A stretch of DNA of 64,000 nt. Source: Escherichia coli (GTDB taxonomy: Bacteria > Pseudomonadota > Gammaproteobacteria > Enterobacterales > Enterobacteriaceae). Under the pieces are notes generated by a model. The model had not been told where the DNA came from and made no database searches. It was given only the letters and a program-made list of their open reading frames with translations. Made by a program: the position numbers and the translations under genes. Shown here piece after piece: positions 944-4,322 of the stretch; the stretch's first letter is position 1; the number at the start of each line of letters is the position of its first letter. The stretch lies in the NCBI RefSeq assembly GCF_030384885.1, contig NZ_CP128613.1, one strand, 5' to 3'.

Positions 944-972
944 AAAAAAGCAGGGAATTATCCCCGGCTTTT
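944..972. terminator. Imperfect GC hairpin with A-run upstream and T-run downstream; likely bidirectional terminator (the T-run on the minus strand fits nupC)
   Basis: aaaaaaagcagggaattatccccggctttt read directly; stem gcaggg/ccccggc with one mismatch. Confidence 0.4.
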
Positions 973-996
973 GTGGCTGATGACAAACAGAAAAAT

Positions 997-1025
997 GCCT
1001 GATGCGCTACGCTTATCAGGCCTAC
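997..1025. repeat. REP (repetitive extragenic palindromic) element
   Basis: gcctgatgcgctacgcttatcaggcctac matches the classic REP motif. Confidence 0.7.
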
Positions 1026-1036
1026 ATGGAATTGAA

Positions 1037-1061
1037 GCCGGGGAATTATCCCCGGCTTTTT
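1037..1061 (+). terminator. Rho-independent terminator-like hairpin downstream of the EAL gene
   Basis: gccggggaattatccccggc followed by ttttt; near-duplicate of the hairpin at 944..972. Confidence 0.5.
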
Positions 1062-2606: not shown

Positions 2607-3854
<1,248 letters not shown>

Positions 3855-3883
3855 TTCAACTGGCGTCGTACCAGGCATCACTG

Positions 3884-3971
3884 GCGGATGCGGCGTAAAA
3901 CGCCTCATCCGCCCTACGCGTTAAAGAGACGGTTTGTAGGCCTGATAAGACGCACTAGCGTCGCATCAGGC
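3884..3971. repeat. BIME-like pair of REP elements between mntH and ypeC
   Basis: gcggatgcggcgtaaaacgcctcatccgccctac and gtaggcctgataagacgcactagcgtcgcatcaggc are two inverted REP-type palindromes. Confidence 0.65.
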
Positions 3972-3995
3972 ATTGTGCTCCATTGGCGAATGTGT

Positions 3996-4322
3996 TTAAT
4001 GGCGGTGTCCATGTCCGCGGCCTTTTCCGCGATGATCGTCACGATCGCGCCAGCCTTCACGATAGCCACGCTCATACGCTTTACGCTTATCCCAGCCACG
4101 GTGGTAGCCATTATCATGACGCCACCAGCGGTTTTTACGCCATTCATAATTGCGATGCCAGTAGTCACGGTCGCGCCAGTGACCACCGTCCCAGTAATTA
4201 CCGTAATGATCGCGATCGCCAATTTGTAATTTGATTGATGGCAGTAGGGTGATTTCACCTGCGTTTGCCGCAAGCGGGGTAAATGCCATCAGGGCGGCCG
4301 CCAGAAACAGTGACCTGAACAT
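3996..4322 (-). CDS. ypeC: Small secreted Arg/His/Trp-rich protein YpeC (DUF2502 family)
   Basis: 108-aa ORF with signal-peptide-like N-terminus [21 protein letters not shown] and a highly basic repetitive C-terminus. Confidence 0.75.

Follow-up and report, generated by a model that had tools for sequence, protein, structure and literature searches.

Between the convergent genes pdeA and nupC of Escherichia coli, copies of one hairpin can lie on either side of a REP sequence, an arrangement that raises the question of whether the spacer carries a doubled terminator or the footprint of an inserted repeat. Knowledge of REP and BIME sequences goes back to the 1980s, and E. coli carries hundreds of them. 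The way in which they disseminate was described as unknown in 2012 and again in 2021 (PMC3333891, PMC8266576). We addressed the question with a 64,000-nucleotide stretch of E. coli DNA (the window), comparing its spacer with those of complete genomes and related species and with other BIME-1 sites. We put at about 0.8 the probability that a BIME-1 element inserted between pdeA and nupC with duplication of the stem-loop that it targeted and was later truncated. Taken alone, the locus is of modest interest, being a rare, old and decayed allele (17 of 5,426 genomes); its value lies in exposing a recurrent, hairpin-sized BIME-1 target duplication that bears on the open mechanistic question of REP/BIME spread.

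A REP sequence between two copies of a stem-loop

The first 4 kb of the window correspond to the pdeA (yfeA)/nupC/mntH region of E. coli. The plus strand carries the 3′ part of pdeA (48 to 935; stop codon TAA at 933-935), the gene for a MASE1-EAL c-di-GMP phosphodiesterase, which we identified from the list of open reading frames, the RefSeq annotation of identical or orthologous DNA and the Pfam MASE1 and EAL domains of homologs. The minus strand carries nupC (1078 to 2280; stop codon at 1078-1080), which the open reading frames and RefSeq annotation identify as a nucleoside permease of 400 aa and whose translation is present verbatim in public assemblies. The two genes thus form a convergent pair, with 142 nt between their stop codons. 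Within this spacer, the 20-mer GGGAATTATCCCCGGCTTTT occurs twice on the plus strand (953-972 and 1041-1060), 88 nt apart, and these are its only exact matches in the 64-kb window. Allowing up to three mismatches still returned two matches against 0.00 expected from 100 shuffles; the absence of any match in the shuffles rules out a chance origin of the repeat. The sequence-only reading from which we started had described two near-identical hairpins (at about 951..972 and 1042..1061) around a canonical REP. The arrangement held up, with coordinates off by only 1-2 nt, and the 20-nt repeat is exact, but the left copy as a whole has a degenerate left arm and a weaker fold.

The left copy of the duplicated stem-loop, AGCAGGGAATTATCCCCGGCTTTT (24 nt, 949 to 972, plus strand), was delimited from the direct repeat, the inverted repeat and the predicted folds, its boundary being taken from a comparison of element termini across sites. 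It is preceded by an A7 tract (943-949), the last A of which is its first base, and its left arm reads GCAGGGA where GCCGGGGA is expected. Folding energies were -13.1 kcal/mol on the plus strand, where the stem has an A x C mismatch and is followed by UUUUG, and -12.7 kcal/mol on the minus strand, where a G.U pair rescues the stem and U7 follows. A terminator consensus scan also matched the minus strand here (966 to 951 plus CTTTTTTT). The right copy, AGCCGGGGAATTATCCCCGGCTTTT (25 nt, 1036 to 1060, plus strand), was recognized from its fold and from a 100% complementary inverted repeat, and forms a perfect 10-bp stem with a 4-nt loop (arms at 1035-1044 and 1049-1058) that folds more stably, at -20.4 kcal/mol on the plus strand and -20.2 kcal/mol on the minus strand. 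On the plus strand it is followed by T and AATTAAT, giving a 10-bp stem plus U5; on the minus strand CAAUUCC follows, without a U tract.

Between the copies lies a Y-type REP, or palindromic unit (TGCCTGATGCGCTACGCTTATCAGGCCTAC, 996 to 1025, plus strand), with CTAC at its 3′ end, in agreement with the REP of the initial reading. REPs are imperfect palindromes of 30-40 nt that carry a conserved GTAG, or CTAC when read on the opposite strand, at one foot. The unit is extragenic, between two stop codons, matches at 30 of 30 positions a Y REP variant also found at yhfZ/trpS, and folds in both transcripts as a stem-loop with an internal mismatch; REP core seeds occur at 14-40 places per E. coli genome. 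The only other REP locus of the window, at 3830-4000, is a REP/BIME cluster just downstream of mntH with Y- and Z-type units on the minus strand. Its Rfam matches to naRNA4, a nucleoid-associated RNA derived from REP325, scored 48 and 38 bits and so stayed below the threshold of 59.5. The one Rfam match at 980-1064, to MicX, reached 24.7 bits against a threshold of 75; we regarded it as hairpin noise and rejected a known RNA family for this segment.

Alleles of the spacer in E. coli and outgroups

We compared the spacer across 5,426 complete E. coli genomes with a 601-bp query, for which 4,458 genomes reached at least 80% coverage. In the great majority the query spanned only about 508 bp (31 of 32 near-full-length matches in an evenly spaced sample). 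These short alleles, carried by about 99.7% of the 5,426 genomes, contain one perfect palindrome of 32 nt (AAAAAAGCCGGGGAATTATCCCCGGCTTTTTT) and no REP. The long allele, with a REP and a second hairpin, was found in 17 genomes, 10 of which are identical to the window, and in 6 of the 17 an IS186 copy lies inside the right hairpin. Two strains with the long allele, EC42405 and R32_14_1F, are ordinary in their right flank and are set apart from the short allele by a clean segment of 88 nt. None of the 5,426 genomes had a REP without a second hairpin or a second hairpin without a REP. The strain alignment that the sequence-only reading had proposed as a check was hence informative: in all 17 genomes with either feature the two are present together, and the same arrangement in every strain, which would have spoken against an insertion, is not what we found, the empty allele being the rule in E. 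coli.

A single bidirectional terminator hairpin without a REP was also found at the orthologous position in Salmonella enterica, a Citrobacter-like genome and a third species, on contigs that encode PdeA homologs and include a genome with a 72%-identical PdeA. When the hairpin core was scanned in one genome per prokaryotic species, two Escherichia genomes matched: Escherichia sp. E1V33, in which the hairpin is single, and E. whittamii, where two perfect copies lie at a distance of 177 nt. Matches of the hairpin 19-mer in Chimaeribacter and other genomes were unrelated and attributed to chance, and PdeA homologs with 88-91% identity, which we had considered as possible other Escherichia species, proved to belong to E. 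coli, with ordinary short alleles and damaged genes. Because Salmonella, the Citrobacter-like genome, the third species and E1V33 all carry one hairpin, the single-hairpin state is ancestral and the double-hairpin state derived. Together with the empty alleles and the co-occurrence of REP and second hairpin, these outgroups bear out the earlier suggestion that the spacer holds the footprint of a REP insertion that duplicated its target hairpin.

In its flanks, the window shares 97-98% identity with common alleles and 99-100% with the other long alleles, as compared to 86-95% with E. whittamii. The haplotype of the E. coli long allele differs by 2-3% from the common alleles and is not whittamii-like, and an import from E. 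whittamii finds no support in these flanks. The long alleles of the two species could go back to one old event followed by a long-lived polymorphism, to the transfer of a small segment, or to a second hit at a hot spot.

Origin of the inserted segment

BIME-1 elements, two-REP mosaics of about 152 nt, are the REP doublets or REPINs of Escherichia, also known as RIP or RIB elements, and their conserved outer tails correspond to the A and B motifs of older nomenclature. They combine a Y REP, a long linker (L) and an inverted Z1-type REP, and occur as single, extragenic copies at gene 3′ ends (PMC3333891). Their presence or absence among isolates is on record (PMC1187871, in a statement citing Bachellier 1997). 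The E. whittamii spacer has this defining make-up: a complete BIME-1 of 152 nt lies at the same site, between two perfect 20-nt copies of the palindrome, and comprises a tail (GAGGCTGATGACAAACAAAAATT), a Y REP, a 35-nt linker, an inverted Z-type REP and a second tail (TAAACAAAACGCACTTTGTCAACAAACTGA). The 63 nt between the stem-loop copies of the window (973 to 1035, plus strand) consist of a 5′ terminal tail, defined by comparison of termini (GTGGCTGATGACAAACAGAAAAA, 973-995, plus strand), the Y REP and 10 nt that end in the terminal TGA, and they match the first 60 nt of the E. whittamii element at 93% identity. The two elements also have unusual tail variants (GGCTGATGACAAACA) and the terminal TGA in common. 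With the 5′ tail GTGGCTGATGACAAAC retained, the 3′ tail reduced to its last 3-4 nt (TGA), and the linker and Z REP absent (about 89 nt in all), the window copy has a Y REP only and is a truncated derivative rather than a full BIME-1 member. The 93% match, the common tail variants and the terminal TGA identify it as the E. whittamii element with about 89 nt deleted from its interior. A 68-nt query with the insert found no identical donor locus in the 5,426 E. coli genomes; the best non-self matches were other REP/BIME loci, at 86-94% identity over 55-60 nt.

The history that we propose would begin with a spacer holding only the 32-nt palindrome, as an intrinsic terminator that served pdeA in one direction and nupC in the other. 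A BIME-1 of about 152 nt would have entered at this stem-loop, and the whole structure (24-25 nt) would have been doubled, one copy ending up on each side of the element. In the rare E. coli lineage of the window, the later deletion of the linker, Z REP and 3′ tail would have left 63 nt with one REP, and the left hairpin copy would have acquired the changes in its left arm.

Stem-loop duplication at other BIME-1 sites

Because the window has only one other REP locus, we collected BIME-1 copies from metagenome contigs with the pattern Y-REP, 25-45 nt, Z-REP, obtaining 120 loci at about 60 distinct sites. Exact flanking direct repeats of at least 12 nt were present at 5 of 61 sites, as compared to 2 of 1500 mismatched pairs of flanks. 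We then scored flank similarity with gapped alignments anchored on the element ends, pairing the left flank of one site with the right flank of another as the null. Of 60 sites, 17 scored above the 99th percentile of this null, where 0.6 were expected, and 8 above its 99.9th percentile; once redundant sites were removed, the 17 represented at least 12 independent loci. At the sites with similar flanks, the left copy ends 0-1 nt from the element start and the right copy begins 0-1 nt from the element end, and the duplication consists of a stem-loop of 18-27 nt that is particular to the site (-8 to -19 kcal/mol). The other 43 of 60 sites had no recognizable flank duplication, and many of these have decayed termini; age may be a sufficient, if unproven, explanation. 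Termini are intact at 23 sites. Of these, 13 have the duplicated stem-loop on both sides, 8 adjoin a strong stem-loop on one side only, and 1 has no stem-loop. Stable stem-loops adjoin 28 of the 46 element ends, versus 16 of 92 control windows taken 90-140 nt further out (p = 6e-7).

Across sites, the ends of the elements are constant (5′-GAGACTGATGACAAACGCAAAA ... TTGTCAACAATCTG(A)-3′) and their length is 151-154 nt. Consensus tails were derived from 14 sites, and the termini (5′-GAGACTGATGACAAA...TTTGTCAACAATCTG(A)-3′) form an imperfect inverted repeat of about 15 bp. The one-sided class, which accounts for 8 of the 23 well-preserved sites, is exemplified by the yhfZ/trpS spacer of the K-12 lineage, in which a full BIME-1 directly follows a terminator hairpin (AAAAAAACCGGGTTTCCCCGGTTT) and no second copy lies beyond the element.

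Filled and empty alleles could be paired at three loci besides pdeA/nupC. Between uspB and pitA, 1,939 genomes, including K-12 MG1655, have a BIME-1 between two copies of AGCGGGCCAG(TAAA)CTGACCCGCTCG, and the empty alleles are 174 bp shorter and have one copy of the stem-loop. Between metE and ysgA, E. coli has the single stem-loop CCGGGTGGTAATACCACCCGG, and a related bacterium has the stem-loop, a BIME-1 and the stem-loop again. Next to fbp, in the spacer shared with a DUF2569 gene, the 23-nt stem-loop is present in two identical copies in a filled allele and in one copy in E. coli SCPM-O-B-9504; the filled contig ends 130 nt past the element, and the empty allele was retrieved separately. 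At all four loci the duplicated hairpin abuts the element ends, is specific to the site and is single in the empty allele, the genes are convergent (4 of 4), and the target is their common terminator, composed of an A tract, a stem-loop and a T tract. These comparisons indicate that bracketing by a duplicated hairpin is a recurrent signature of BIME-1 insertion, not a peculiarity of pdeA/nupC. The fbp/DUF2569 hairpin is also flipped between its alleles, with the loop GCAA in the empty one and TTGC in both copies flanking the BIME-1; the palindrome as a whole is thus inverted, which could reflect a loop-inversion polymorphism that existed beforehand or have come about during the insertion.

Other origins of the duplication

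Palindromes stall replication forks and promote template switching, and a strand stalled at the pdeA/nupC palindrome could have copied a BIME-1 elsewhere through microhomology, re-annealed upstream and copied the hairpin a second time. Terminator arms such as CCCCGG, which lie next to other BIMEs (e.g., at yhfZ/trpS), could provide the microhomology, and the flipped fbp hairpin is a typical product of such switching. We nevertheless consider this route improbable because the element ends are invariant, identical to the nucleotide at no fewer than 13 sites with unrelated targets, which is unexpected if random microhomology sets them. The duplicated unit also follows the boundaries of the stem-loop rather than variable return points, and no donor with the same tails was present in 5,426 genomes.

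A slightly poorer prospect is that the long form is ancestral in Escherichia and that the short allele arose from it by precise deletion between the 20-25-nt repeats, through slippage or recombination. Such a loss is mechanistically easy and may well have occurred secondarily: in E. coli, about 10% of small variable segments lie between direct repeats of less than 30 bp, which are considered a cause of slippage deletions (PMC2884548). The insert is, moreover, about as diverged from the E. whittamii copy (about 93% identity) as the flanks are, which implies that the filled state is old. Against an ancestral long form stand the single hairpins of Salmonella, the Citrobacter-like genome, the third species and Escherichia sp. 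E1V33, and the nature of the insert, a dispersed repeat family with precise ends that requires an insertion at some point. Furthermore, a crossover within the exact 20-nt repeat of the window would retain the GCAGGG left arm, whereas the short alleles have a perfect arm.

That a local tandem duplication gave two terminators under selection and the REP arrived between them independently is very improbable, although the copies are predicted to be functionally asymmetric and would suit one gene each, given that no genome compared has two hairpins without a REP, that the short allele is already predicted to terminate in both directions with a stronger hairpin (-31/-26 kcal/mol, U6 on both strands), and that many unrelated BIME-1 sites are bracketed in the same way, the boundaries coinciding exactly with the element ends.

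A candidate insertion mechanism

Insertion with target duplication remains the reading that we prefer, and the comparison across sites suggests how it might proceed. The target would be recognized as a structure, since the duplication equals the local stem-loop, whatever its length, at 13 or more independent sites while the element ends do not vary. The two strands would be opened at opposite feet of an extruded hairpin or cruciform, so that the stagger corresponds to the length of the palindrome; once the element was joined and the gaps filled, the stem-loop would have been copied. We hold this geometry, a staggered opening at two hairpin feet, to be a little short of an even bet.

The RAYT-type HUH transposase TnpA-REP is a more doubtful, though plausible, candidate for the enzyme. 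It cuts only single-stranded DNA, at C|T and on both strands of BIMEs (PMC3333891, PMC8266576), and both ends of the BIME-1 element contain C|TGA, which includes the C|T that the enzyme requires. Its substrates are limited to single-stranded or hairpin DNA, and its cuts leave 3′-OH ends that can attack. The role of TnpA-REP in BIME dissemination has, however, been called unknown (PMC3333891, PMC8266576), and transposition of the IS200/IS605 type, the HUH model for this enzyme, produces no target duplication (PMC3333891). We therefore rejected a pure single-strand insertion by TnpA-REP as the sole cause, as it yields no duplication by itself. Insertion of a single strand at one foot of the hairpin would be expected to leave the hairpin on one side only, as at 8 of 23 sites, and duplication may be one of two outcomes of insertion or may depend on host repair. 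The target junctions are not always C|T, the one at uspB/pitA being CTCG|T.

More broadly, and with somewhat less than even odds, BIME-1 might be a structure-targeting mobile element that inserts at intrinsic-terminator stem-loops, mostly between convergent genes, opens the strands at both hairpin feet and duplicates 18-27 bp. If so, the duplication would be the missing insertion signature of REP/BIME dissemination, and TnpA-REP, or a host structure-specific nuclease together with it, would differ from its IS200/IS605 relatives in acting on the two strands of a cruciform. The spread of BIME-1 would also systematically turn bidirectional terminators into pairs of one-way terminators separated by a REP.

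IS186 at the same hairpin

The pdeA/nupC hairpin (GGGGAATTATCCCC) is in addition a recurrent target of IS186, annotated as IS421 or IS4-like. K-12 and at least 479 complete genomes have IS186 in the single hairpin at the K-12 junction, and its recurrent targeting of this hairpin accounts for the familiar IS186 copy that K-12 carries between nupC and pdeA. The insertions occur in both orientations and duplicate 10-12 bp (GGAATTATCC); they lie in the only hairpin of short alleles or in the right, perfect copy of long alleles, and were never seen in the degenerate left copy among the genomes examined. The IS186 insertions mark this hairpin as accessible to mobile DNA. They differ from the BIME-1 insertion in that IS186, an autonomous element of the IS4 family, enters inside the stem-loop and duplicates only its center, whereas with BIME-1 the whole structure is duplicated. 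We rejected an IS186 footprint as the source of the long allele because the insert lacks IS186 ends and IS186 duplicates only 10-12 bp.

Predicted consequences for transcription termination

The short-allele hairpin folds at -31.1 kcal/mol on the plus strand and -25.6 kcal/mol on the minus strand, with U6 on both strands, and is a textbook bidirectional intrinsic terminator, its GC-rich stem lying between an A tract and a T tract. In the window, the form of an intrinsic terminator is found for the right copy on the plus strand (10-bp stem and U5) and for the left copy on the minus strand (G.U stem and U7); the right copy on the minus strand and the left copy on the plus strand lack a proper U tract or stem. 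The folds and U tracts suggest that one bidirectional terminator was split into two one-way terminators, its two functions now predicted to reside on separate copies with a REP between them. Transcripts of pdeA are predicted to pass the weak left hairpin (UUUU only) and the REP and to end at the right copy, and those of nupC to pass the right copy (no U tract) and the REP and to end at the left copy. Both mRNAs would, as a result, acquire a 3′ UTR that includes the REP, and the overlap between them would be about 110 nt. REPs downstream of genes affect mRNA 3′ ends (PMC3333891). REP stem-loops are also known to stabilize mRNA from its 3′ side. The initial proposal of a duplicated bidirectional terminator for the EAL gene and nupC thus survives in part: each copy is a predicted terminator for one of the genes, but the copies are one-way, as a consequence of the insertion. 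The left-arm changes of the left copy keep pairing in the nupC transcript and lose it in the pdeA transcript, a pattern consistent with retained selection for nupC termination. Each insertion of this kind would be predicted to turn a common bidirectional terminator into two separate terminators and to provide both convergent mRNAs with overlapping, REP-containing 3′ ends.

Relation to known mobile repeats

Classical MITEs such as Correia/NEMIS, ERIC and RUP resemble BIME-1 in being short and non-coding, in having direct repeats and filled and empty sites, and in affecting neighboring transcripts; the imperfect terminal inverted repeats of BIME-1 (about 15 bp, (G/C)AGAYTGWTGACAAA) are also MITE-like. 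In MITEs, a DDE transposase sets short duplications of fixed length, often TA, whereas the length of the BIME-1 duplication follows the secondary structure of the target. The closest documented analogue is the Yersinia repeat YPAL (RU-2), which is described as about 168 bp long, not AT-rich and without TA ends (De Gregorio et al., 2006, as summarized in PMC2229807). Its target duplications are given there as 3-26 bp, at targets that span or adjoin dyad symmetry (PMC2229807). The likeness, a structure-sized duplication at palindromic targets, is one of behavior only: going by that summary, YPAL belongs to another genus and apparently to another sequence family, and the BIME-1 duplication is consistently the whole terminator stem-loop (18-27 nt). 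In three other phyla, REP dimers have been observed to lie inside target palindromes. In the BIME-1/RAYT system itself, the IS200/IS605 model predicts no duplication, in contrast to the stem-loop-sized duplication seen here at many sites. The literature searched contained no mention of target duplication by BIME, REP, REPIN or RAYT; it did not extend to the early original work (Bachellier 1997, Gilson 1991, De Gregorio 2006), in which an earlier description is possible. A reproducible footprint, with precise ends, a terminator stem-loop as target and a duplication as long as the stem-loop, constrains the mechanism of insertion.

Additional observations on the neighboring genes

The NupC of another species (GCA_014105935.1 and GCA_020002305.1) is identical to that of the window at 400 of 400 residues despite many synonymous differences in the DNA and a diverged pdeA end, a sign that NupC is under very strong purifying selection. 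In RefSeq, the annotation of this region also includes a 14-aa open reading frame (Pfam YpeD-like) that overlaps the start of mntH at about 2570-2615 of the window and may encode a putative leader peptide. In strain Z0117EC0005, the long-allele pdeA/nupC segment is present on the chromosome and also on a separate 50-kb replicon record (NZ_CP098226.1 26206-26322; NZ_CP098223.1), which may reflect a plasmid-borne chromosomal fragment or an assembly artefact. Finally, the pdeA stop codon of the long-allele strain EC42405 has changed from TAA to GAA, and the annotated protein is three codons longer, ending at a TAA right ahead of the left hairpin.
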